DNA from: an uncultured archaeon
GTDB lineage: Archaea > EX4484-52 > JAADEF01
Direction: 5' to 3'
DNA length: 18,138 nucleotides
Assembly (NCBI GenBank): GCA_964407715.1
Contig: CAYOWP010000006.1
Span: forward strand, 12,645 to 30,782
Shown: positions 1 through 14,443 of the stretch, piece by piece
Position numbering within the stretch: position 1 is the first letter of the stretch
Layout of the letters: the number at the start of each line of letters is the position of its first letter
Translations under genes and position numbers: made by a program
Notes under the pieces: model-generated
What the model saw: the letters and a program-made list of their open reading frames with translations, nothing else
Databases searched by the model: none
What the model was told of the DNA's origin: nothing

Positions 1-83
1 CTTTTAAAATCATCCTTTCGTCATAGCTCATAACATACTCCAAGTTATGAGCGCGGCGCTCTGACCAACTGAGCCACGTGGGC
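1..83 (-). tRNA. tRNA-Met(CAU), elongator type, intron-containing; only the 5' exon (46-83) and part of the intron (1-45) are in the window
   Basis: Minus strand reads GCCCACG TG GCTC AGTTGGTCA GAGC G CCGCG CT CAT A, then non-tRNA sequence. G1-C2-C3 fits archaeal elongator Met better than Ile2 or initiator Met. The 3' exon lies outside the window. Confidence 0.85.
7..34 (-). ncRNA. Putative intron-encoded box C'/D' guide for 2'-O-methylation of C34 of the host tRNA-Met
   Basis: GTTATGAGC (26-34) is antisense to GCUCAUAAC of the host anticodon arm. It is followed by T, D'-like ATGA (21-24), C-GAAA-G and C'-like ATGATT (8-13). The 5th nt upstream of D' pairs with C34. Confidence 0.65.
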
Positions 84-220
84 TCATCCAATAATACATT
101 TTAAATTATAATGATATTTTTAAATATTTTGAAATGGCGTCTTAACAATGCGCTACTTTTAAGTGAGAAAACAACATTTTTTAAATCTTTATGATTATTT
201 ATTGTTATGGGAGATAAAGT

Positions 221-769
221 ATGGAAATATATCGCATATCCACCATATATCAAAACCAAAATAGAGGAGAGATATCCAGGAAGATAAGTAAAGGAGGAAT
301 AAGAGAATATGCTCGTCTATACTACGAGATAGCTTCCAATTCTGATTTACCTAAGGACATTCGTAAAAAAGCATTAGAAAATGCAATTAACGGATATCTT
401 AAACATTTCGATATTTTTTATTCTTTTTATATATTAGAAGAAATAATAACCGGGAAAAATCATAGGATAAAGGATATATATGGTAATGATATTAAGGAAT
501 ATGCATCTTTTGGATTAATAGAAAAACTGAAAAATCTTTACTATGAAAACTTTAATAACAGTCCATTTCTTAAAATGGAGATATTAAAAATATTGAAGGA
601 AATAAAGGAGAACAACAGTTTTCCCGAAAACGCCAGAAAAAAAGCGGATAACGTATATAAAGAACTTAAACTTAAATTTGATAATGAAGTCAATGAGAAA
701 TATAGAGATAAAGAACATCTATATAACTCAATAATAAAGGAATTGGAATTATATGGCATAAAGAAATAA
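221..769 (+). CDS. Hypothetical protein, 182 aa, charged and probably alpha-helical
   Basis: Long ORF in AT-rich DNA filling the gap between two tRNA genes, with GGAG upstream of the ATG. No motif recognised. Confidence 0.7.
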   Translation: MEIYRISTIYQNQNRGEISRKISKGGIREYARLYYEIASNSDLPKDIRKKALENAINGYLKHFDIFYSFYILEEIITGKNHRIKDIYGNDIKEYASFGLIEKLKNLYYENFNNSPFLKMEILKILKEIKENNSFPENARKKADNVYKELKLKFDNEVNEKYRDKEHLYNSIIKELELYGIKK

Positions 770-774
770 AAAAG

Positions 775-893
775 TGGTCCCGGAGGGATTCGAACCCTCG
801 ACCTCCGGCTCGCTTCGGATTGGGAGGAAATTTGCGCATATACCTCCCAAGGCCCTATAAGACCGGCGCTCTGCCAAGCTGAGCCACGGGACC
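775..893 (-). tRNA. tRNA-Ile(UAU) with 45-nt intron at 37/38 (intron 811-855)
   Basis: GGTCCCG/CGGGACC acceptor stem, A73, GCTC/GAGC D stem, CCGGT CT TAT A|A GCCGG anticodon arm, GAGGG TTCGAAT CCCTC T arm. Intron hairpin TTGGGAGG/CCTCCCAA and a relaxed BHB. CCA not encoded. Confidence 0.9.
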
Positions 894-941
894 ATCATTA
901 AAATAATATAAACATTATTTAAAATTTAAAAATGATATTTT

Positions 942-1121
942 TTATCTCACAACCTCTATAGGTATTACGCCCATCTCAAATTCTTTTTTAGCAATAGAAA
1001 CAGGATCTAACACATTAACTCCTTCAAGCTTTATTAATGGTGGAGCGCCCATAGAAATTTGCATTGCTCTTGCACCTATAATTCGCGCTCTTTCATACTT
1101 CGTATATTTTTGAGAACTCAT
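942..1121 (-). CDS. rpoK: RNA polymerase subunit K (Rpo6), 59 aa; not in the supplied ORF track
   Basis: Manual translation [59 protein letters not shown] has the Rpo6 T.YE.AR..GARA.Q motif. SD GGAGGTG upstream; follows rpoN. Confidence 0.96.
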
Positions 1122-1151
1122 CCTTTTACACCTCCAAAGATAGCAACAAAA

Positions 1152-1376
1152 CTATTTCTTTTCCTTTATAGGTATTATCTTATTTCTGAAGATAGCGATC
1201 TCATCAAAAACATCAACATAAGTTAAAAAGTGCTTTCTGCAACAATATCTCTTTACACCTAACTCATCCAACACCTCTCCTGGAGGTCTCCCTTTCTTAT
1301 TTACCTCTTCATTATATTTTTCCCATAAATGACCTATAACCTTTCCACATGAAATGCATCTTACTGGGAATAGCAT
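1152..1376 (-). CDS. rpoN: RNA polymerase subunit N (Rpo10)
   Basis: PVRCISCGK and RYCCR zinc motifs. Start moved to the ATG at 1376 because the track's GTG lies inside the SD GGAGGTG. Confidence 0.97.
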   Translation of the reverse strand: MLFPVRCISCGKVIGHLWEKYNEEVNKKGRPPGEVLDELGVKRYCCRKHFLTYVDVFDEIAIFRNKIIPIKEKK

Positions 1377-1409
1377 ATTAAGCACCTCCTTATAAGAATA
1401 GGTATTTGG

Positions 1410-1916
1410 TTATCTTTTACTTAATTGCTTCTTTCTTCTTGGTCCTTGCTTTGATCTCGATGGCTTATGAGGCTCGGTTTGTCTAACGTCAGGAACAAGT
1501 AAGGATCTATCATAATCTATAAACATTTCCTTTAAAGCATCATCCTTATAATACTCTACAAGTGCTTTAGCAATAATTTGTCTTACAGCATCACTTTGAC
1601 CTGTTATTCCACCACCGTGAACATCAATCTCTATAGAGATATTTTTCATTTTATCCTCCCCAGCTAAATATACTGGCTCTAATATCCTATAAAGAAGTAG
1701 TTTTGGAAAATATGATTCTAATGGTTTTCCATTAACCCTAATACTACCATTCCCTTTCCTAATATAGCCTCTTGCGATTGCCTTTTTTCTATACCCAATA
1801 ATCACTAATGTCTCCTGTTTTTTTGATGTCTGCTTAGTTTTTTTAGATGTGCTTCTTGCCCTTTTAACATTCTTCTTATCTTTTTTCTTTGAAACATCTT
1901 TCTTTTTCCTGCTCAT
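1410..1916 (-). CDS. rps9: 30S ribosomal protein S9 (uS9) with Lys-rich N-terminal extension
   Basis: G.RK.AIAR, IRVNG, VHGGGITGQSDAVR and DRSLLV.D.R..EP motifs; conserved synteny. Confidence 0.97.
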   Translation of the reverse strand: MSRKKKDVSKKKDKKNVKRARSTSKKTKQTSKKQETLVIIGYRKKAIARGYIRKGNGSIRVNGKPLESYFPKLLLYRILEPVYLAGEDKMKNISIEIDVHGGGITGQSDAVRQIIAKALVEYYKDDALKEMFIDYDRSLLVPDVRQTEPHKPSRSKQGPRRKKQLSKR

Positions 1917-1927
1917 TTGTTCTCACC

Positions 1928-2365
1928 TTATTTTGCACTATCTTGGATATTAGCACCTAAATGTTTTGATACCTCTTCAAGATATACATACTTCATGTTT
2001 TTCAAATTATTTTTTGAGAACATTTCCAATCTAATGAACTCTTTGTCTTTGTATTCCTTTGGAATACCAATAAATGTTTTAATCCTTCTTAAAGCCTCTC
2101 TCCCTCTTTTTGTCTTATATGGTAACATACCTCGAATTGTCCTTCTCACAATTCTATCAGGGTATCTTGGATAAAAAGGTCCTTTGTATCTATCTCCCCT
2201 TTCTCTCTTAGCTTCATATCTTTCCAAGATATTTTCGCGGTTACCTGAGATAACACATTTTTCGCAGTTTACTATGATGATCTCTTCCCCTTCTAATGCC
2301 TTCTTAGCGATATAACTAGCCATCCTACCTAATATAGTATCTGAGGCATCTATATATAATGTCAT
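1928..2365 (-). CDS. rpl13: 50S ribosomal protein L13 (uL13)
   Basis: IDA...ILGRMAS, GPFYPRYPDRIVRRTIRGMLP. Start placed at the ATG at 2365, downstream of SD AGGTG. Confidence 0.97.
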   Translation of the reverse strand: MTLYIDASDTILGRMASYIAKKALEGEEIIIVNCEKCVISGNRENILERYEAKRERGDRYKGPFYPRYPDRIVRRTIRGMLPYKTKRGREALRRIKTFIGIPKEYKDKEFIRLEMFSKNNLKNMKYVYLEEVSKHLGANIQDSAK

Positions 2366-2377
2366 CTTATACACCTA

Positions 2378-2743
2378 TTACTCCATTATTCTTATGTTTT
2401 TTCCTTCTTTGTTTATTTTCACTAATTCCTCAAAAGATATTATTTTTCCTCCTGCCAATTTAACTTTATTCAAAGCATTTTTTGAACATGATAAAGCTGC
2501 AATGATTAATGGCTTTTCCAATATCCCATAACCCAAAACCTTTCCAGGAACTGCAATGAATTCTCCCTCTTTGCCATATCTATTTATTTTTATTAGGTTA
2601 ACACTAGATCTTTGCCTTCTTGGTCTCATTAATCTTTCTGCTAAGTCCTTCCATACCTTCTTCTTAGTTTTTCTATATGTCTTCTCTAAAATAGCTATCT
2701 GCTTTCTTGTTACTGGATTTGTTGGTCCTGTTCTCACTACCAT
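2378..2743 (-). CDS. rpl18e: 50S ribosomal protein L18e (eL18)
   Basis: TNP, W..LAE.L.RPRR, VNL.KINR and VPGKVLG motifs; synteny. Confidence 0.96.
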   Translation of the reverse strand: MVVRTGPTNPVTRKQIAILEKTYRKTKKKVWKDLAERLMRPRRQRSSVNLIKINRYGKEGEFIAVPGKVLGYGILEKPLIIAALSCSKNALNKVKLAGGKIISFEELVKINKEGKNIRIME

Positions 2744-2774
2744 CTCGCATCACTTTACGATAAATTGGTTATGA

Positions 2775-2907
2775 TGCAGGGGGCGGGATTCGAACCCGCG
2801 AAGGCACTAAGCCACAGGATTTCTTATGAAATCATTGCTTAAGCTCATAACTTAAGATGCATTTCATCTTAAGTCCTGCCCCATTGACCAGGCTAGGGGA
2901 CCCCTGC
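2775..2907 (-). tRNA. tRNA-Leu(UAA) with 47-nt intron at 37/38 (intron 2821-2867)
   Basis: GCAGGGG/CCCCTGC acceptor stem, A73, CAGGA CT TAA G|A TCCTG anticodon arm, long variable arm, TTCGAAT T loop. Strict BHB (CUUA/UAAG central helix, UGAAAU/AUUUCA outer helix). Usual archaeal position between rpoD and rpl18e. Confidence 0.95.
2829..2859 (-). ncRNA. Putative intron-encoded box C'/D' guide for 2'-O-methylation of U34 of the host tRNA-Leu
   Basis: CATCTTAAGT (2850-2859) is antisense to ACUUAAGAUG of the host pre-tRNA. It is followed by T, ATGA (2845-2848), GC-TTAA-GC-A and ATGATT (2830-2835). D'+5 pairs with U34; same layout as the Met intron. Confidence 0.55.
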
Positions 2908-2931
2908 CCAATACTAACATAATGTAAGTTT

Positions 2932-3564
2932 TTATTTAAAAGTCTTTTCCAGTATTTTAAGTTCATCGATCACATTTTTGACAGCCTCTTTTAGAATCTC
3001 ACGTGGTGATAATGCGCTTATACTTTCCACATACATTTCATATTCCTCATCTTCTTTTATTTGTTTTATACCCACAATAGCAGGGATATATTTAGCATGA
3101 TCCTTGCCACTTCCTAAAGTAATCGCGCCTTCTATATCTATTTCTTGCTCCTCCAACAATCTTACAACAATGATATCATCATATAATGGCTTAAAACTCT
3201 CGTGAGTGGTTTTTATATCCTTTGCATATACAGTGCATGGTCCTTTTTTGGATAATACAAACTTAACACTACATCTGGGTGAATCTGGGTTTTCCTTACA
3301 TTCCTTTGAGTTTCTGTTAAGTAATGCCCTTTTATCGAAGGTAAAAGGTATCATTGCTAATCTATGAGCCAACATTTCATCATATAATCCAGATGTATTT
3401 TTGAGCACATCAATATATTCCACTGCTGCAGTCTCAACAGAATTTATTATTCTTCTCCTAATAGTATTTACAAAATAAGACGGGTATCCTTTAAGGATAC
3501 ATCTTATATATTCATCCGTCTCTTCCAATATCTTAATAGTTTTATCTTTTTTTGAATTGCTCAT
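2932..3564 (-). CDS. rpoD: RNA polymerase subunit D (Rpo3), short form
   Basis: NTIRR, NTSGLYDEMLAHRLAMIP, VYAKDI and G.GKDHAKY.P motifs; follows rps11. Confidence 0.97.
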   Translation of the reverse strand: MSNSKKDKTIKILEETDEYIRCILKGYPSYFVNTIRRRIINSVETAAVEYIDVLKNTSGLYDEMLAHRLAMIPFTFDKRALLNRNSKECKENPDSPRCSVKFVLSKKGPCTVYAKDIKTTHESFKPLYDDIIVVRLLEEQEIDIEGAITLGSGKDHAKYIPAIVGIKQIKEDEEYEMYVESISALSPREILKEAVKNVIDELKILEKTFK

Positions 3565-3599
3565 GTTCTCATAGCCTCCCTTGGAGTATAATGAAAGGG

Positions 3600-4073
3600 C
3601 TATACTCTTCTACCTCTTTTACCTCCAGGTCTTCGTGTATGATCATGAGGTATAGGTGTAACATCCTCTATCCTCAATACCTTTAATCCTCCTTGGATTA
3701 GCCCTCTAATTGCAGATTGTGCGCCTGGACCAGGAATCTTTTGCCTATTTCCACCTGGTGCTCTGACCTTTACATAGACCTTCTTTATGGTTTTTTCTAT
3801 TGCCTCCTCAGCAGCTCTCTTTGCTGCTTGCATCGCAGGATATGGAGTGCCTTTTAATCTGCCTTTATCTGTGAAATTACCTCCACTATACCTTGCGATG
3901 GTTTCTGATCCTGTGATATCTGTAATATGCACAATAGTATTATTCATACTACTATATATATGTGCTATCCCTACTCTTTCAATTGATTTTTTGCTTATAG
4001 GGGAAGAGGATTTTTCATTCTTTATCTCTTCTTTCTCATTTCCAGCTTCTTGCTGTGTAGTTTTTTCAACCAT
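3600..4073 (-). CDS. rps11: 30S ribosomal protein S11 (uS11)
   Basis: [46 protein letters not shown]. Confidence 0.98.
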
Positions 4074-4088
4074 TTATTTCACCTTTTA

Positions 4089-4580
4089 TTATGCCTCTTC
4101 TTTCATTTTTGCATAATAAGGAGATTCAGGATCTATTTCCACGACATCATTTACAGTGACTAAATAGCTTGGGCTTGTTATCCTTGTACCATTCACGAGG
4201 ATATGTCCATGAACTATCATTTGTCTTGCTTGTAATGGTGTCCTAGCAAATCCTTTCTTGTATACTATTGTCTGCAATCTTCTTTCGAGAAGATCCTCAA
4301 CATTTAATCGTAAAACATCTTCTAAGGATGGATTTTCGCCGAGTAATCCATATTTGCGTAGTTGATCAAACAACCTTTTTTCTTTTTCCTCATCATATTT
4401 AGCAATGAGATCCCTCGCTTGATGCCTAAATTTTCTCAGCAATGCTTTGATCCTCCATATCTCTCTATTTTTTCTTAATCCATATTTCTTTTTTAATTTT
4501 GATTCCTCTACTATTCTATCTTTATCGTACAATCTTTTTGGTGATAAATATTTATTTTTGAATTTTCTAGGATCCCCCAT
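4089..4580 (-). CDS. rps4: 30S ribosomal protein S4 (uS4)
   Basis: MGDP, YGLRKNREIW, LERRLQTIV, ARQMIVHGHI. Confidence 0.98.
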   Translation of the reverse strand: MGDPRKFKNKYLSPKRLYDKDRIVEESKLKKKYGLRKNREIWRIKALLRKFRHQARDLIAKYDEEKEKRLFDQLRKYGLLGENPSLEDVLRLNVEDLLERRLQTIVYKKGFARTPLQARQMIVHGHILVNGTRITSPSYLVTVNDVVEIDPESPYYAKMKEEA

Positions 4581-4599
4581 TATTCTTCACCTTTTCTTG

Positions 4600-5061
4600 T
4601 TACTTTTTCTTTCTTTGTACTCCAACAGTTTTGCCGTGTCTAAATGAAGTTCTTGTTCTTTGACCTCTGACTGGTAATCCTAGTTCATGCCTTATACCTC
4701 TATATGCCCTTATTTTCCTTAGTCTATTGATATCATTTTTTACTGTCAAATCAATGTCACTTCCTATTAAATGAATGTCTTTTCCTGTTTCATAATCTTT
4801 TCTTCTATTCATTATCCAAGAAGGTATACCATATTTTGATGGATTTTTTGCTGCATCCTCTATTTTTTCAAGTTCTTCTTCTGTAAATTCATTTAATTTT
4901 TTATTTTCATCAAATCCAAGGGCTCTCAATATGGCCCGAGCAAAGTTATGGCTTATTCCTTTAACTTTTATTAAGGCATGATATGCCTTTTTGTTTCCAT
5001 CCAAGTCATAACCCAAAACCCTAATTACATCTGCAGGTTTATCTTCCTGGCTTTTTGCCAT
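4600..5061 (-). CDS. rps13: 30S ribosomal protein S13 (uS13)
   Basis: IPSWIMNRRKD, YRGIRHELGLPVRGQRTR; SD GGTGA upstream. Confidence 0.98.
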   Translation of the reverse strand: MAKSQEDKPADVIRVLGYDLDGNKKAYHALIKVKGISHNFARAILRALGFDENKKLNEFTEEELEKIEDAAKNPSKYGIPSWIMNRRKDYETGKDIHLIGSDIDLTVKNDINRLRKIRAYRGIRHELGLPVRGQRTRTSFRHGKTVGVQRKKK

Positions 5062-7347: not shown

Positions 7348-8814
7348 TCAACTCTTATTTTTTGACTTTACCTTTTTTGATTTCTTTTTTGATAGAATTA
7401 CTAATATAACGATTAGTATAGCTATTAAAATTCCAGCAATTACTGTCTTTAAAACTGTTGGATTTGTTAAGATTACATATCCAGTTGGAAGGGATGTTTT
7501 TGAAGGACAAACACCACAATCTATTTCACATGTTGAACAATTTTCATTCTCTTCACAAATTCCATCTCCACAAAAATTCTTCTTTACTGCCAGAGTAATT
7601 GTATCGCCCGTTTTATCTATTTTAACAGGAAGTATATATTCTATTTTCTCTTCTGTGGTTTTAGGAGTCCATCTTATGATAGGATCCTCCTGTAAAATCT
7701 CAGGTAGAAGGCCTTTAAATACTATTTTATTTGCATTATCTACAATTTCCTTTGGAATTATTTCTATGATTTCTATATTTGCATCACTGATTTTTATAGT
7801 GATTTTTGATTTGTATATTTCTTTTCCTGTCTGCTTATTCCTTATTCTATATACTTTTATTTGTTTTTCAACAGAAACTTTTGGTTTATTGGATAAAGAA
7901 TTAATGAGGGATTTAACCTTTTCATTTGTTGCAATTGATAAAGCATAGCTTATTTCTTTTTGTGTTGTTTCTATTGTTCCAGAAGTTTCTTTTATCTGTT
8001 TTATTTCAGGTATTTTATCTTTTATTTGTTCTTTCAGTAACTCGATTGTACTAATTAATCTTAATTTCGTCTCCAAATCCTCTGTATTTTTTGCAATCTC
8101 TATTAATTCCTTCACAGTTTTAAGGTCTTTTAATGCTTTCTGATATTCTTCAAAAGACAAACCGATTGCGCTTAAATCATCAAAAGTTATTGAAAGAGTT
8201 TCTATGAGTGTTTTGGAGTTATAAATATCTTCTATCTCTATTCTTTGTTTTTCTTCTATTTTTGATAAAGCTTCTTTTGCTTCCTCTATTTTGTTGGATG
8301 CGATCAATTCCTTTATTTCATCTAATTCTGATTTTTCCTCTACAATATTTGGCTCTTCTTCTGTTTCATTACTTTCAGCTGTTTCTGCATATGGTGGAGT
8401 ATAACCTCCGCCTCTTCTTGCAGTGACAGGAGGAATATAATTTTCTGTTGTTTTTAAATCTAGTCTAGTGTAAGCTCCATTTGTAAAAGTTGCCGTCTGT
8501 ACTATTGAATAAGTATGTTTCGTAGCTGGATCATATAACTTAAAAGAAATTGTTTTACCTTCTCTGTTGTTGTCTGGATCTGTAACAAAAAATATAAAAG
8601 GATTGTATCCATACTTTCCATCTAACGTATAGGTTGTTCCCGCAACCTCTCCATCAACATATGCCTTTAATATAAACCCTGCTCCAACTTTTTCTCCATT
8701 ATTAAATGTTATTGTTCCATAAAATTGGTGAGGTATTCCTGGCACTGCAAAAGTGATTGAACTAAGTAGGATAGAAAACAATAACATAATCCAAAAAAAT
8801 TTTATTTTTACCAT
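7348..8814 (-). CDS. Predicted cell-surface protein with signal peptide and C-terminal membrane anchor, 488 aa
   Basis: N-terminal basic+hydrophobic leader, beta-rich domain (PHQFYG...DGKYG), GGG/acidic linker, helical region, CGDGICEENENCSTCEIDCGVC motif, TM helix and Lys-rich tail. Confidence 0.85.
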   Translation of the reverse strand: MVKIKFFWIMLLFSILLSSITFAVPGIPHQFYGTITFNNGEKVGAGFILKAYVDGEVAGTTYTLDGKYGYNPFIFFVTDPDNNREGKTISFKLYDPATKHTYSIVQTATFTNGAYTRLDLKTTENYIPPVTARRGGGYTPPYAETAESNETEEEPNIVEEKSELDEIKELIASNKIEEAKEALSKIEEKQRIEIEDIYNSKTLIETLSITFDDLSAIGLSFEEYQKALKDLKTVKELIEIAKNTEDLETKLRLISTIELLKEQIKDKIPEIKQIKETSGTIETTQKEISYALSIATNEKVKSLINSLSNKPKVSVEKQIKVYRIRNKQTGKEIYKSKITIKISDANIEIIEIIPKEIVDNANKIVFKGLLPEILQEDPIIRWTPKTTEEKIEYILPVKIDKTGDTITLAVKKNFCGDGICEENENCSTCEIDCGVCPSKTSLPTGYVILTNPTVLKTVIAGILIAILIVILVILSKKKSKKVKSKNKS

Positions 8815-8872: not shown

Positions 8873-11800
8873 TTAATCACAGATGTCTCCTGGACCATAC
8901 ATGTATGTTTCTCCTATATCACTTGACTTCATAAATATCCAATATCCTTTACCTGGTATCATATAATCATCAGGTGTAACTTCTTCAAATGTCTTCTTGT
9001 AATTATCATATGTTACCAAAGTTGTCCAGTATTTTTCAGATATGTCAATAATACATTCTTCCTCATTTAGATTTGGAATACTAATACATTCATACTTTAT
9101 TAAACTCGATAGAGCACAGTATACAGGAGATTCATCTTCACCAGGCTTTTGGTAATATCCAATTAAATTCCATCCAGGTTTTAAAACTCTCTGAGGAGGA
9201 GTCTCTTTTTCTTTGAACAAACTGCCATAACCTTCAATAACAGCTTCTTCTGTGGCGCTTATCCAATAACCATATCCAGCGGTCATTGTGTCAAGGTTAC
9301 TTGTTTCTGGACTGTCAGGATGGTAAACATACCATTCATCATTTACAGCATCATAGGTCCACACAGAATCTATTGCATTTTTAGCATCTCCTAAAACAGC
9401 ATCAATACTTGTATCTCCAGGCACAGTTGGAATAGAAATTAAATTCCATCCAGGAGTTAACTCAATAGAGTAGTAAGTAGCTGTTATAAAGCTCCATTCT
9501 GTATCTCCTAACTCATTTTCTGCAAGGTCAGTGATTCCAGTCAATGTCACTCTAAATTCTGTATTGGAGTCCAAGTTGTTTGTTGGATCAAATGTTAATG
9601 TATCTGTACTGTATGTTACTATCCCTTCAATAGAGTTCCCAGTAGAATCGATAACAGAAATACAATTTTCCCAACTTCCTAAAGTGCACTTTACCTCTTC
9701 ACTAAACTTCACCATGATATTAGTAGTTGGATCCACACCAACTGCATTTATTCCTGGGCTTCTTTCCAAAATTGTTGGAGGAGTCAAATCCACAGTAAAT
9801 GAGATTACATAATCTTCAGAGTTAACTGGTTCACCATCTATCTCGGATTTACATTTTACGTAATATGTATACTTTCCTTCTTTAAGGTTACTTAACTCAA
9901 CATAATGATATAATCCATCATCTGTGTTAAATGTTCCCTCCATTGAATCATACTCTGTTCCTTCTGTTTCGCTATACTTACAAGTTGCTGGTCTGTCGGT
10001 TGTTAAGGAAAGTGTCAAAGTATCTGTATTTACATAACCAGTTGGCGCTCCGTTTTCTCTAACAGGTGCATCATCTTTGCTTGCTTTTAGCCATGGATCA
10101 TAATCAACATTTTCGCTTACAGCATCACAACCCTCACTACCAGGTCCATCAGCACAGCCCCAGTAGTTGAATTCTGCATCTAAAATACCACTGCCATCGT
10201 TATAAACACCATATGCAGCATTTCCTTCGATATTATTGAAATTGATCTTTATACATGAGACATCAACACCTACTATATGGATACCGGAATCTACCTCGAC
10301 ATTATTAATGATGTTGTTGTTTGTTATAACGATTTGATTGCTTGTAGGACCTAGCCAAATACCATGTCCCCAGTTTGAGATGTCATTTCCTTCTATAGTA
10401 GCATCGACTGTACCATCGCCATATTCAGATCCGATTGAAATACCTTCACCATAGCCAGCTCCAGTTAGATCGTTGTTCTTTATGGTAACGGTAATGGCAG
10501 CATTTTCATCCCACGTCACAGCACCTGTACCGGCAATATAGGAAAGGCTTGTAAGACCACTTGCATCTATCGTGTTGTTCTCGATCGTTACATCACAAGT
10601 AACAGGTGGATACCATCCTGCCTGGGCAACAATACCGGCTTGACAGTTAGTTACTATGTTATTTCTGGCATTTCCACTTGAATCGACGAATAGAATTCCA
10701 GTTGCTATCCAACCTGCGCCTGTGTAAGCAATATCTGATACCATATTTTCAACTACAGAACCGGTTGCTCCGTAGCCAATCTGAATTCCATTTTGAGCCA
10801 CATCATCCCTAGGTCCTGAGCCAATGATGGTATTATCATGTATATTAACTGTAAGCCCCTCGTAATTTGCTGTAATTCCGTTTTTGTAGAAATTTGAGAT
10901 TGTAGATCCTTTTACTTCCACGTTAACATTATTGCCCATAGAGGAAAGATAAATAGCATTACCATCGGCTATATTAATGCCTTCTACGGTAACAGAATCA
11001 ATTATTCCATTGACACCACGATATAATATTCCAACGAACATAGTGTCTCCACTTGGTACAGAACTGACCTCTGAACCATCTATCTTTAGATTCTTTATAG
11101 TTGCATCAGCATTGGCCACAACTATAGGAGCTGTGTTATCAGATCCACCAGGTTTTCGGCTGAAAAGCTGGAAGTTATCTGCTGTAGTCTGAGATGGCTT
11201 TATGATTGTTGTATCTCCCTGACCTTGAATTGTTAGAGGTTTACTAATAATAATCTGCTCATCATAAGTTCCATCAGCAACTTCAATTGTATCTCCTTCA
11301 CTTGCAGCATCTATAGCTGCTTGAATGCTGGTGAAGTCAGCTCCACTTGGACCAACAGTAAGAGAATTATCCAAATCAACCACAAATGAAACACTATCAG
11401 AAACTGAATTTCCTGCGGCATCTGTTACAGTTAGTGTTAAATGATGACGACCATCAGATAAGCCAGTAATCGTTGTATCAACTTGCATATCACGTTGACA
11501 ATCCACTGAAGCAGGATCGTTATTATCAATTTTATAAGAGCAAGTTACCGCTGTTCCTGTGTCATGAGGAGTAAATCTCAATGGAACGTTACCTTTATAA
11601 ACTTTATCATTTTTTGGTTCATCGAAATTAGTAATAGTTGGCTTTTGAGTATCAACAGTTAATTCATTGCTCGTATCATCATTTCCAATATTACCAGCTT
11701 GATCAGTTGCAGTTACAGAAACATCATAAGTTCCGTCACTCAATTCATCGGTAACATCAGCTGTCCAAGTACCATCGCCATTATTCGTTGCTGCATATGT

Positions 11801-14443
11801 ATTTCCACCTACAGTTACTTCAACTGTAGCTGTAGGATCATCAACTGTACCTGTCAATTGAGGAGTATTATCATTGATAATTAAAGTGTTAATAGTTACT
11901 ACTGGTGCTTTAGTATCTACAGTAACCGTTTTACTTGTATCTGTTACTGAATTTCCAGCCTTATCAGTGATAACTACTTCTATTGTATAAACTCCATCGC
12001 TAACTAAATTTTCATTGTCATCTTTTCCATCCCAAATTTTTGAGATTGAACTGGTTTCAGTTCCAGTCCAAGATTTAACAGTATTACCTTCGCCATCTTT
12101 AATACTAATTGTATAATCCACTGCCTCGGAAAATTCTAAATTAATAGTTGCAGTATCTTTTACTCCATCATTATTAGGTGAAAAGATAGGATTATCTATA
12201 GTATAAGTTGTAATTTCTGGAGGAGTATTATCTACAGTAACAGAAATAGCACTAGATGTTAGCGAGTTCCCTGCTTTATCAATTGCCACAGCAGTTAGAG
12301 AATAAGTACCGTCTTTAACTTTTGTTGTATCCCAATCTATAGAATATGGCGAATCTGCATCTTCTCCTATTTTTGTATTCTCATAATAAAACTCAACTTT
12401 TGCTATTCCAGAACCACCATTATTGTCCTTTGCGTCTGCTTGTATGGTAATTTTTCCTTTTACGTAGTCATCATTTGAAGGACTTGTTATTTTTATAGTT
12501 ATTGGTTTTGTTTTATCAATTTTAACTGTGAAAGTGCCAACATCTGAAGGGTTACCAGCGTTATCCCAAGCCTGATATCTTATAACCTTTATTCCATCAT
12601 CCGAAAAAGTTAATTGATATGGAGAATAAAGAACAGTACCTTGTGAAACATCGCAAGATTCGCCCTCGCAATATTTAACCTCTTTTATTTTACTATCTCC
12701 TTCATCGTGTGGTGACAAAGATACTGTCTGCTCAGAGTTAACCCAAATTCCATCATATATATAATCATCAGAAATTGTTGGAGCAATTTTATCAACTCTA
12801 AATTCAACCGGTCCTGCTGTAGCAGAATTTCCTACATTGTCTTCTCCATAAGCACAAACCCATTGGTGAGAAGAAATTTTCACTGAAGTACCAACAGTAT
12901 ATTCTGAAGCATCACCAGGACAGGTTCCGGGATCTGAATCATAAAGTTTATAACCAATTGTATTTGAATTACATCCGCTTTCTCCATTACCATCTTCGCA
13001 AGAAATTTGAGCTATTCGATCCACATTTACCCAATCATCAGGATTGCCAGAAATTGAAATTGACGGAGCATTTTTATCTACTACCACATTAACTGCTGCC
13101 CCCTTTCCTGTATTCTCAACATAATCTGTCGCTCTAAAGTTAATTGAGGTAGCGCCAGAAGTATCAACATTTTCTGCTTTGCAAAGATGGTTTTCAGAAT
13201 CATACTCTGCGAAATTCCAATTTATTCCACCATCTAAAGTATATTCACAACTCGCTACTCCAGAGCCATCTCCATCATTTACTGAGGCAGAGATAGTGGA
13301 AGTACCAGAAATATAGAGATTTGTACCATCAGAATAAGATGGTTCTATCTGGATATTTTCAATTGTTGGTCCGCTGTTATCAACATAAACGGATAATGTT
13401 TTCGCATTTTCCACATTTCCAGCTTTGTCCTCGCTCCAATAAGTAATCGTATGAGGACCTTCGCTGGAAATGGTTATTGGATTAGAGTAGAGTTGATCAT
13501 CTCCGTTATCTATTTTGTAATAAGTTACCTGAACTCCTGAACCCTCATCTTCTGCACTTAGGGTGATTTGAGTTGAGGAGGTTATATAAGTTGGATTTGT
13601 ACCATATTTCGGGTCTCCAACACTAACCTCAGTTACTGGTGCTTTTTTATCGATTTTGATAACTCCTGAAGTTTTAGTGTTTTCTGTATTGTCAACATTA
13701 TCGATAGAATAGTACTTTATTGTATACTTGCAAACAGAATCTTTTGAGCAAGTTATGGGTATAGAAATACTATTTCCTGTTCCTATTTGTTCATTACCGC
13801 AATTTTCTCCGTTTTCATCGCAGATTTGATAATGAATTTCTTTGCAATCGGAACCTATATCACCGTCATTGCAAGTTAAAGTAACGGTAACATCAGAATT
13901 CTGCCATTCTGTTGGAGCATTATCTGAGGTTGTTGGTGGAGTAACATCAACTGTAGTTGTAGCATCGGTATTGGTAGAGGAACCCCCTGCATTATCATAT
14001 GTAGTCACAATCCAAGTTACTACAGTATCTTGAGATAATCCACTTGCAGAAGCAGCATCAAAAGAAACCTCAGCTGAGCTACCTTTTTCAATGTATTGTG
14101 GGTCTGTAAAATCATATAAACACTTAGCTAATTTATTTATTGAATCATAAATAGGTATCCAATTTAATGGACATTGTAGATTGCCACTGTAAGCAATAGT
14201 ACCATCTTCTGGAAACTTTATTACAATTCCCTTTAATTTATCATCTCCATTATTTGTTACCGTAAAAGTGTATGTCTTCGTGACTTCGCCTTGGACGTAT
14301 TGTGGAGAGACTGTCACGCTTGCGGTATGGGTTGCGAAGGCAGGAAGGATACAAAGAGCCATGAAGAATAATGACAAGACAAACAATGACTTTGACACTC
14401 CTACAGAATTTATTATCAAGTTTTTTATGGATGTTTTTTGCAT
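8873..14443 (-). CDS. Giant secreted/surface protein, 1856 aa, with multiple Ig-like domains and a right-handed beta-helix
   Basis: Signal peptide and SD GGAGGTG. Repeated D.AGN...VD.T.P Ig-like units, FSPNNDG (FlgD-Ig-like), TSIQAAIDAA..GDTI.V..GTY.E beta-helix start ending VDYDPWL, SbsA-type Ig unit, duplicated PGWNLI...G.GYWI C-terminus. Confidence 0.9.
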   Translation of the reverse strand: MQKTSIKNLIINSVGVSKSLFVLSLFFMALCILPAFATHTASVTVSPQYVQGEVTKTYTFTVTNNGDDKLKGIVIKFPEDGTIAYSGNLQCPLNWIPIYDSINKLAKCLYDFTDPQYIEKGSSAEVSFDAASASGLSQDTVVTWIVTTYDNAGGSSTNTDATTTVDVTPPTTSDNAPTEWQNSDVTVTLTCNDGDIGSDCKEIHYQICDENGENCGNEQIGTGNSISIPITCSKDSVCKYTIKYYSIDNVDNTENTKTSGVIKIDKKAPVTEVSVGDPKYGTNPTYITSSTQITLSAEDEGSGVQVTYYKIDNGDDQLYSNPITISSEGPHTITYWSEDKAGNVENAKTLSVYVDNSGPTIENIQIEPSYSDGTNLYISGTSTISASVNDGDGSGVASCEYTLDGGINWNFAEYDSENHLCKAENVDTSGATSINFRATDYVENTGKGAAVNVVVDKNAPSISISGNPDDWVNVDRIAQISCEDGNGESGCNSNTIGYKLYDSDPGTCPGDASEYTVGTSVKISSHQWVCAYGEDNVGNSATAGPVEFRVDKIAPTISDDYIYDGIWVNSEQTVSLSPHDEGDSKIKEVKYCEGESCDVSQGTVLYSPYQLTFSDDGIKVIRYQAWDNAGNPSDVGTFTVKIDKTKPITIKITSPSNDDYVKGKITIQADAKDNNGGSGIAKVEFYYENTKIGEDADSPYSIDWDTTKVKDGTYSLTAVAIDKAGNSLTSSAISVTVDNTPPEITTYTIDNPIFSPNNDGVKDTATINLEFSEAVDYTISIKDGEGNTVKSWTGTETSSISKIWDGKDDNENLVSDGVYTIEVVITDKAGNSVTDTSKTVTVDTKAPVVTINTLIINDNTPQLTGTVDDPTATVEVTVGGNTYAATNNGDGTWTADVTDELSDGTYDVSVTATDQAGNIGNDDTSNELTVDTQKPTITNFDEPKNDKVYKGNVPLRFTPHDTGTAVTCSYKIDNNDPASVDCQRDMQVDTTITGLSDGRHHLTLTVTDAAGNSVSDSVSFVVDLDNSLTVGPSGADFTSIQAAIDAASEGDTIEVADGTYDEQIIISKPLTIQGQGDTTIIKPSQTTADNFQLFSRKPGGSDNTAPIVVANADATIKNLKIDGSEVSSVPSGDTMFVGILYRGVNGIIDSVTVEGINIADGNAIYLSSMGNNVNVEVKGSTISNFYKNGITANYEGLTVNIHDNTIIGSGPRDDVAQNGIQIGYGATGSVVENMVSDIAYTGAGWIATGILFVDSSGNARNNIVTNCQAGIVAQAGWYPPVTCDVTIENNTIDASGLTSLSYIAGTGAVTWDENAAITVTIKNNDLTGAGYGEGISIGSEYGDGTVDATIEGNDISNWGHGIWLGPTSNQIVITNNNIINNVEVDSGIHIVGVDVSCIKINFNNIEGNAAYGVYNDGSGILDAEFNYWGCADGPGSEGCDAVSENVDYDPWLKASKDDAPVRENGAPTGYVNTDTLTLSLTTDRPATCKYSETEGTEYDSMEGTFNTDDGLYHYVELSNLKEGKYTYYVKCKSEIDGEPVNSEDYVISFTVDLTPPTILERSPGINAVGVDPTTNIMVKFSEEVKCTLGSWENCISVIDSTGNSIEGIVTYSTDTLTFDPTNNLDSNTEFRVTLTGITDLAENELGDTEWSFITATYYSIELTPGWNLISIPTVPGDTSIDAVLGDAKNAIDSVWTYDAVNDEWYVYHPDSPETSNLDTMTAGYGYWISATEEAVIEGYGSLFKEKETPPQRVLKPGWNLIGYYQKPGEDESPVYCALSSLIKYECISIPNLNEEECIIDISEKYWTTLVTYDNYKKTFEEVTPDDYMIPGKGYWIFMKSSDIGETYMYGPGDICD

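Follow-up and report, generated by a model that had tools for sequence, protein, structure and literature searches.

What is the role of the 47-nucleotide (nt) intron that interrupts a tRNA-Leu(UAA) gene in an uncultured archaeon? The gene lies in an 18,138-nt stretch of contig CAYOWP010000006.1 (positions 12,645 to 30,782), to the whole of which we refer as the window. The original prediction, made from the letters of the window, saw in this intron a minimal single-guide C'/D' RNA directed at the wobble uridine U34 of its own tRNA. Support for this idea comes from paralogous introns in the same genome, from the orthologous intron of a sister genome and from 69 tRNA-Leu introns of DPANN archaea. 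In our opinion it is likely that the intron is a 2'-O-methylation guide of the box C'/D' type, with one guide and one kink-turn, which would act on U34. This opinion rests on sequence comparison and predicted folding throughout.

The genome that holds the window (G000; 0.9 Mb, 92% complete, 16 contigs) has a sister genome in the same genus, which we call G001. The window is AT-rich, with 28-39% G+C. The Rfam tRNA model RF00005 matches it at 2775-2907 on the minus strand (39 bits, E 3e-05), treating some 50 nt of the anticodon loop as inserted, and ARAGORN with introns allowed reports tRNA-Leu(taa) with a 47-nt intron. The anticodon stem reads CAGGA/UCCUG and the loop C32 U33 U34 A35 A36 G37, after which come the intron and then A38. 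The span given in the original prediction, 2821-2874, corresponds to the intron plus A31-G37. The features needed for the argument are the following; MFE stands for minimum free energy and BHB for the bulge-helix-bulge motif recognized in splicing.

2775..2907, minus strand: tRNA-Leu(UAA) gene with intron, pre-tRNA of 133 nt (Rfam RF00005, ARAGORN -i, sequence reading)
2907-2868, minus strand: 5' exon (sequence reading)
2868..2874, minus strand: target strand A31-G37 of the anticodon arm, with U34 at 2871; pairs with intron nt 12-18 in the MFE fold
2821..2867, minus strand: 47-nt intron at the canonical 37/38 position (sequence reading, ARAGORN)
2850..2859, minus strand: putative guide (antisense) CAUCUUAAGU, intron nt 9-18, in which A15 (2853) pairs with U34 (2871); 10-bp helix in the MFE fold
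2845..2848, minus strand: D'-like box AUGA, with the unpaired spacer U19 (2849) just before it (sequence reading)
2837..2844, minus strand: C-stem of the putative kink-turn, the GC-UUAA-GC mini hairpin GCUUAAGC (sequence reading)
2829..2836, minus strand: 3-nt bulge AAU (2836-2834) and GAUUU (2833-2829), with the C'-like box AUGAUUU at 2835-2829 (sequence reading)
2827..2832, minus strand: 3' strand of the inner BHB helix, intron nt 36-41, forming 6 bp with nt 2-7 (2866-2861); overlaps the C'-like box (sequence reading)
2820-2775, minus strand: 3' exon (sequence reading)

On reading and folding the sequence, every element that the original prediction had named is in its place: the antisense match, then U-AUGA, GC-UUAA-GC, AAU and GAUU. 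The guide pairs with A31-G37 and with intron nt 1-3, and the resulting helix of 10 bp is part of the MFE fold of the whole precursor; 9 nt fit the spliced anticodon arm. The fifth nucleotide upstream of AUGA is A15 and its partner is U34, which is the N+5 register. In the kink-turn scheme, AUGA contributes the GA of the strand without the bulge. The C-stem consists of the GC/GC pairs, of which a C-G borders the 3-nt bulge AAU, and the GA of GAUUU enters the tandem G.A pairs, which are followed by U.U and U-A. As far as sequence can tell, the box pair AUGA ... AAU-GAUUU with its GC/GC C-stem is capable of forming a kink-turn.

Is there a second box pair? The original prediction had seen no terminal C/D pair, and indeed there is none in the 47-nt intron. 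No nt-39 guide with a box D was found after the C'-like box, where there is only CAUAAGAA, a part of the BHB. A search with cmscan (E up to 10, window 600-3100) gave no match to a curated Rfam C/D family, returning at the locus only the tRNA model and chance-level matches. Two candidates were considered and rejected. A second kink-turn made of AUGA at the intron 5' end and AAGA at the 3' end, with the anticodon stem as C-stem, would have an 8-nt bulge, and G001 has AUGG at that place. In the 3' flank, GUGAUGC resembles a box C, but it is where the L18e open reading frame (ORF) begins.

How easily does such an arrangement appear by chance? Among 20000 dinucleotide shuffles of intron nt 1-41, an antisense match of at least 9 nt to the spliced arm arose 24 times and the two boxes alone 619 times. 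One shuffle had NUGA together with a 7-nt antisense in the N+5 register, and none of the 20000 had the full module. The original prediction had also warned that the intron might fold as a plain hairpin. For this intron the warning is justified: it folds alone with -11.7 kcal/mol (z -2.4), and 3 of 200 shuffles fold as well. It does not extend to the related introns, since the whole-intron hairpin is not conserved in the G001 orthologue (-3.6 kcal/mol, z 0.06) or in the Leu(CAA) intron of the same genome (-4.0 kcal/mol, z +1.8).

The intron is at the same time a canonical archaeal tRNA intron. An hBHBh' splicing motif is present at 37/38, with two 3-nt bulges around a 4-bp helix. The central helix pairs C32-A35 with UAAG (intron nt 42-45, 2826-2823), 4-7 nt from the 3' splice site. 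The bulges are A36 G37/A1 and A46 A47/A38, each containing one splice site, here shown by the slash. Because intron nt A36-U39 belong both to the inner BHB helix and to the putative kink-turn, the two folds are mutually exclusive. This part of the original prediction stands; the overlap, which had been assigned to the outer helix, is located in the inner one. When the precursor is folded under constraint, the BHB fold has -16.7 kcal/mol and the guide fold -18.0, with the MFE at -18.6.

Does the module occur elsewhere in the same genome? Examination of all tRNA introns that ARAGORN reports in G000 shows that those of Leu(CAA), Trp and Met have the same layout, namely an antisense to their own nt 31-37, one nucleotide, AUGA, a short hairpin, RAU and GAUUN. 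In all three, N+5 falls on nt 34. The module was not found in the five other intron-containing tRNAs of the genome (Phe, Thr, Ile(UAU), Tyr and Lys).

Leu(CAA) intron: antisense UCUUGAGU, then A AUGA, GC-GAU-GC, GAU, GAUUU
Trp intron: antisense UGGAGC (6 nt), then U AUGA, GC-UCUAAU-GC, AAU, GAUUC
Met intron (window 1-45): antisense UAUGAGC, then U AUGA, C-GAAA-G, GAU, GAUUU
1..85, minus strand: 5' part of tRNA-Met(CAU), that is, the 5' exon and the start of the intron; module in the intron, C34 at 49
Within it, minus strand: UAUGAGC 32-26, AUGA 24-21, CGAAAG 20-15, GAU 14-12, GAUUU 11-7, with N+5 on C34

The Leu(CAA) intron settles a further caveat of the original prediction, which had pointed out that CTTAAG is palindromic. 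The Leu(CAA) loop contains CUCAAG, which is not a palindrome, and the intron carries CUUGAG; hence the intron element is genuinely antisense to the loop and does not just repeat it. A scan of G000 gave 416 module-like sites. Filtering these by 8-nt complementarity to tRNAs recovers the Leu(UAA), Leu(CAA) and Met modules together with a handful of other matches, chance-like, to AU-rich intron sequence; the Trp module is missed since its antisense has 6 nt.

Two observations concern the Met gene. A stretch of 10 N splits it shortly before the window begins, and the sequence past this gap resembles the 3' part of tRNA-Val(GAC), so the 82-nt Met "intron" reported by ARAGORN is an assembly artefact. 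Elsewhere in the genome (contig C4, 61697-61773) a second tRNA(CAU) gene lacks an intron, and 8 nt of the Met intron guide also fit its anticodon loop. Judged by this match, the guide could also act in trans on the second CAU tRNA.

We further compared 42 genomes of the same phylum, in which the Leu(UAA) gene could be read in 23 and the Leu(CAA) gene in 18. In the Leu(UAA) intron of G001, the guide, UAUGA, GAU-GAUUA and the register are kept, and the hairpin is replaced by CUU-UAU-AAG. The original prediction had named conservation of the hairpin alone as the outcome that would speak against it; what the sister genome retains is the reverse, the register and the two GA motifs with a changed hairpin sequence. 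The Leu(CAA) module is present in 14 of 18 genomes. Matches found by homology, not by the pattern, contain the module in 6 of 6 Trp introns and 6 of 6 Met introns. A decayed copy shows what loss of the module looks like: in the Leu(CAA) intron of G011 (locus L140) one reads AUUGAGU UAUAGA ... CAAUAAC, and both GA dinucleotides are gone.

Where does the Leu(UAA) module come from? The Leu(UAA) introns of G000 and G001 are 63-77% identical to Leu(CAA) introns of the same family, and that of G001 is 56-61% identical to those of genus g2, against 40-56% identity to the Leu(UAA) introns of the sister genus; the sequences are too short and too constrained for these figures to give a firm call on origin. 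They suggest that one isoacceptor intron received a copy of the module from the other, and that the anticodon, the guide and the splice helix underwent A/G changes that match one another. Among the Leu(UAA) genes without the module, 9 have 37/38 introns of 23-33 nt, 3 are intron-less and 9 have an intron in the T-loop only. The pattern found no stand-alone U34 guide in any of five module-less relatives (G002, G003, G004, G006 and G009). The long T-loop insertions, in genes without an anticodon-loop intron, are at loci L012, L014-L017, L024 and L028-L030, which belong to relatives G034, G028, G024, G018, G021, G006, G020, G015 and G040. Three Leu-CAA genes (L009, L018 and L021) have an extra intron in the D-loop region besides the guide intron.

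We also scanned one genome per prokaryote species (185,579 genomes) with an exact pattern. Since this pattern required the guide core, the register, UGA and RAUGAU, their conservation among the matches proves nothing. Left open were the linker between the two boxes, position 1 of the D' box (D'1), position 6 of the C' box (C'6) and the pair of nt 34 with its guide nucleotide, for which all four pyrimidine-purine combinations were allowed. There were 73 matches, and by context 69 of them are in tRNA-Leu genes of DPANN-labelled archaea; since these rows include kin and overlap with the phylum relatives, the counts overstate independence. The remaining four (L050, L081, L094 and L109) are outside tRNAs. 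By our own tally, the record titles of the loci read Aenigmatarchaeota (27), Woesearchaeota (8), Nanobdellati (7), Nanohaloarchaeal labels (4), Nanoarchaeota/Nanoarchaeia (2), Pacearchaeota (1), Micrarchaeota (1), Undinarchaeota (1), unspecified "archaeon" (14), "Methanosarcinales" (3) and "bacterium" (1).

What the pattern left open is informative. The pairs were counted with custom scripts. Nt 34 and its guide partner form a Watson-Crick pair in 69 of 69 tRNA-Leu rows (45 U-A, 24 C-G), and they are mismatched in two of the four chance matches outside tRNAs. D'1 and C'6 are Watson-Crick in 50 of 69 rows, where permutation gives a mean of 27.6 and a maximum of 41 in 10000. The linker is either a loop of 5-7 nt, resembling a K-loop, or a hairpin of unrelated sequence. 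In the 42 distinct linkers of at least 8 nt, the mean number of closing pairs is 2.88, versus 0.68 in shuffles (maximum 1.24 in 2000), and 26 linkers have at least three closing pairs where 2.7 are expected. Sixty-one members could be strictly parsed. Their D' boxes are UUGA (27), AUGA (25), CUGA (8) and GUGA (1); the C' box is the canonical UGAUGA in a few family members. A second box pair is not seen in them either: RUGAUGA occurs in the 5' spacer of none of the 61 introns, and the median spacer and tail are 7 and 5 nt. The central BHB helix is fully paired in 47 of 61. One Leu(UAA) locus, L096, is peculiar, as its C'-like GAUGAU abuts AUCCUG directly and a standard central BHB helix cannot be drawn; other splice-site assignments are possible there, the guide copy CUUAAG being palindromic.

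Does the organism possess the proteins that such a guide would need? G000 encodes fibrillarin (220.8 bits), a Nop domain protein (142.8 bits) and L7Ae (93.4 bits). Its Nop5 aligns to residues 120-374 of P. furiosus Nop5, a region that we take to span the coiled coil. Fibrillarin is above the cut-off in 35 of 41 relatives, thus its co-occurrence with the module is uninformative. A methylase of the SpoU type was not found in the 92%-complete genome. The rRNA genes are not in the assembly.

The intron resembles several known systems, for which the literature is cited here from excerpts of the papers. The small RNAs (sRNAs) of the C/D type that target nt 34 in Pyrococcus we presume to be of the usual kind with two box pairs. 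As described in the excerpt, four C/D sRNAs target nt 34 of Leu(CAA), Leu(UAA), Met and Trp in that genus, and the Trp guide alone is intronic (PMC7994747). The four hosts of the module in G000 are exactly this set of targets. The nucleotide, the tRNAs and the expected ribonucleoprotein (RNP) are the same, whereas the Pyrococcus guides are described as separate genes acting in trans (PMC7994747) and here the guide lies inside the intron of its own target and has one box pair.

The nearest relative in kind is the pre-tRNA-Trp intron guide (Haloferax volcanii; Pyrococcus sR50), which the excerpted reviews of 2014 and 2024 present as the unique intron-borne guide (PMC4090602, PMC11408192). Both are 37/38 introns of their own target with a D'-side guide to nt 34, both would use L7Ae, Nop5 and fibrillarin (in our case judging from the genes present), and in both the guide pairing competes with the splicing motif. 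However, the Trp intron is described as a complete nested sRNA with a median length of 65 nt that targets nt 39 as well (PMC4090602). The Leu(UAA) intron differs in its host, and its 47 nt provide a single kink-turn with a single guide for a single target. In G000 even the Trp intron is of the reduced form, unlike the textbook Trp intron. Another intron with a host other than Trp is the 66-nt intron of elongator tRNA-Met in Nanoarchaeum equitans, also a DPANN archaeon, which was proposed to be a C/D box sRNA (Randau 2012, PMC3491384). This stable intron RNA of N. equitans has C/D-like boxes; it differs from the present case in that the host is Met and not Leu, and in that a box C and a box D, but no target register, are given in the excerpt. 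The original prediction knew of no described guide in a tRNA-Leu intron, and we found no report of one in the literature; supplements and subscription papers were outside the search, so an earlier mention is possible.

The single box pair itself recalls engineered "hemi" or half-mer box C/D RNAs, which also have one box pair and one guide, assemble with L7Ae, Nop5 and fibrillarin, and can methylate (PMC1635284, PMC6239191, both in excerpt). Unlike the module they are artificial, and they were reported to be non-specific for the methylated position. A natural module may gain a second anchor from its covalent tie to the target, in our view. The protein-only Nm34 enzymes, bacterial TrmL (PMC6313347) and eukaryotic Trm7-Trm734 (PMC6847430), carry out, according to the excerpts, the same chemistry at the same nucleotide in tRNA-Leu isoacceptors, but they use no guide RNA, and in G000 neither a SpoU-type gene nor more than a weak FtsJ-like match was found. 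The Leu(UAA) module has the N+5 register and the box pair of archaeal C/D sRNAs, its genome has the genes for the three proteins, and it lacks the bipartite C/D plus C'/D' architecture. Judged by its sequence, the module is a reduced variant of the C/D guide family.

How might it work? We envisage that L7Ae would bind first, at the kink-turn in which AUGA, the GC hairpin, the AAU bulge and GAUUU come together, and that Nop5 and fibrillarin would then join. The antisense just upstream of the box would anneal to A31-G37 and to the beginning of the intron in the precursor, most simply within one molecule. U34 would be methylated at N+5 from the D'-like box, giving Um34 or a 5-substituted Um34. 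Refolding would then be required before the endonuclease could cut, since the kink-turn and the guide helix occupy nucleotides that the BHB needs, and methylation would precede splicing. From the sequences we infer L7Ae binding, methyl transfer, action in cis and the order "methylate, refold, splice".

Which form of the tRNA is the substrate? The original prediction had favoured activity after excision of the intron, and on this point our data argue the other way. The precursor offers 10 pairs to the guide and the spliced tRNA 9. Of 59 family rows, 49 have a pair between intron nt 1 and the base just 5' to the 7-nt guide core, and A-U, U-A, C-G and G-C all occur; shifted pairings serve as controls and give 19 of 59, and the same base fits nt 38 in only 26 of 68. 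Because the 5' neighbour of the guide fits intron nt 1 more often than nt 38, the unspliced precursor is the likelier substrate. The target is probably the unspliced pre-tRNA, most simply in an intramolecular hairpin, with which the spacer between G37 and the guide (3-20 nt, median 7, in the family) is compatible.

The alternative is that the intron works in trans once it has been cut out, in linear or circular form, with spliced tRNA-Leu(UAA) or other precursors as its target; this view differs from the scheme above in the substrate only. The 9 nt that the guide can pair with the spliced arm would allow it, as would the 8-nt match between the Met guide and the intron-less tRNA(CAU) gene, and for pre-tRNA-Trp of H. 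volcanii the RNP of the intron is said to act in trans (Singh et al. 2004, as cited in the excerpts of PMC11408192 and PMC4090602). We nevertheless find it unlikely: the pair with intron nt 1 exists only in the precursor, spacers as short as 3 nt fit a hairpin of one molecule, and the excised G000 intron pairs its own guide.

A second possibility is that the kink-turn does bind L7Ae and the antisense does mask the anticodon loop, for a purpose other than methylation: the intron would be a folding chaperone, a splicing timer or a means of L7Ae titration. The two folds exclude each other and are nearly isoenergetic (-16.7 versus -18.0 kcal/mol), and the C'-like box overlaps nucleotides needed for splicing, namely those of the inner helix in the window and, in 33 of 61 family members, the final six of the intron. 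L7Ae is also reported on regulatory kink-turns in mRNA leaders (PMC5539422, PMC6298567, in excerpt). Yet a timer or chaperone has no need for a fixed 1-nt spacing that places nt 34 at N+5 in four tRNAs, and it leaves unexplained why the hosts coincide exactly with the four tRNAs for which C/D targeting of nt 34 is reported in Pyrococcus (PMC7994747, in excerpt). The module has a further trait of a guide. In methylation guides, G6 of box C pairs with C1 of box D, and the covariation between D'1 and C'6 resembles this pair. In our opinion a role of this kind is quite improbable.

That an ordinary BHB intron merely contains box-like words by chance, or is a functionless relic of a full C/D intron, can hardly be believed: CUUAAG is palindromic, the composition is AU-rich, the intron alone forms a hairpin that 3 of 200 shuffles match, the two boxes by themselves are not rare in shuffles (619/20000) and the Leu(UAA) module is present in only 2 of 23 relatives, but the full module arose in 0/20000 shuffles, boxes and register are kept in G001 and in the Leu(CAA) paralogue where the hairpin is not conserved, nt 34 covaries with the guide in 69/69 rows, box and hairpin positions covary as well, and the truly decayed copy in G011 looks different, with UAUAGA and CAAUAAC in place of the boxes.

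Several facts weigh against a methylation guide, and we do not wish to understate them. Work on hemi-complexes in vitro speaks against a single box pair being sufficient: Hardin and Batey (2006), in the excerpt, found single-box complexes active and non-specific, and called the bipartite architecture absolutely conserved in nature (PMC1635284). Further guide RNAs are not evident in G000, where a strict regular expression for full-length C/D sRNAs finds one site versus 0.2 per shuffled genome. The weak FtsJ-like gene (24.7 bits) could in principle encode a protein-only 2'-O-methylase. The guide helix is short, with 7-8 bp in most family members against the 10 bp in the window, and the excised G000 intron can form its -11.7 kcal/mol hairpin, which sequesters the guide. 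Finally, the Leu(UAA) module, confined to G000 and G001 among the 23 genomes, is dispensable in the lineage, and the Leu(CAA) module is patchy, being degenerate in G011 and missing in G015, G023 and G040.

Going beyond the single intron, we tentatively put forward a broader proposal: DPANN archaea may have a family of natural "hemi" C/D guides in the 37/38 introns of Leu-UAA, Leu-CAA, Met and Trp, each acting in cis to make Nm34, with a fold switch that forces methylation before splicing. If true, nature would here depart from the bipartite architecture thought necessary for site-specific methylation, and there would be a concrete reason for the retention of these introns. Guides would be copyable between isoacceptor introns, with matched changes in the anticodon, the guide and the splice helix. 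The principle of an intron-borne self-guide would reach past tRNA-Trp to tRNA-Leu, along with Met and Trp in the same genomes, in many DPANN lineages. Natural RNAs with a single box pair would be a test of how the RNP measures N+5, given that in vitro work demands two pairs for site specificity. Canonical introns would acquire a function in four tRNAs where wobble restriction matters: UUA/UUG must be separated from the Phe codons, AUG from AUA and UGG from UGA.

As for the surroundings, the tRNA-Leu gene is flanked by rpoD (2932-3564) and the L18e-L13-S9 genes, within a ribosomal protein cluster; the conserved order S13-S4-S11-RpoD / L18e-L13-S9 occupies window 2932-5061 and 1410-2743 on the minus strand. 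An A/T-rich box, UUUUAAAUAAAA, about 30 nt upstream of the tRNA-Leu gene may be the tRNA's own promoter. Farther away, 8873-14443 on the minus strand is an ORF of 1856 amino acids, adjoined by one of 488 amino acids (7348-8814) that has no Pfam match. At 775-893 on the minus strand there is another tRNA, with anticodon UAU (Ile) and a GC-rich intron of 45-46 nt without the kink-turn module; according to the excerpted tRNAscan-SE 2.0 paper, tRNA-Ile(UAU) is uncommon in archaea.

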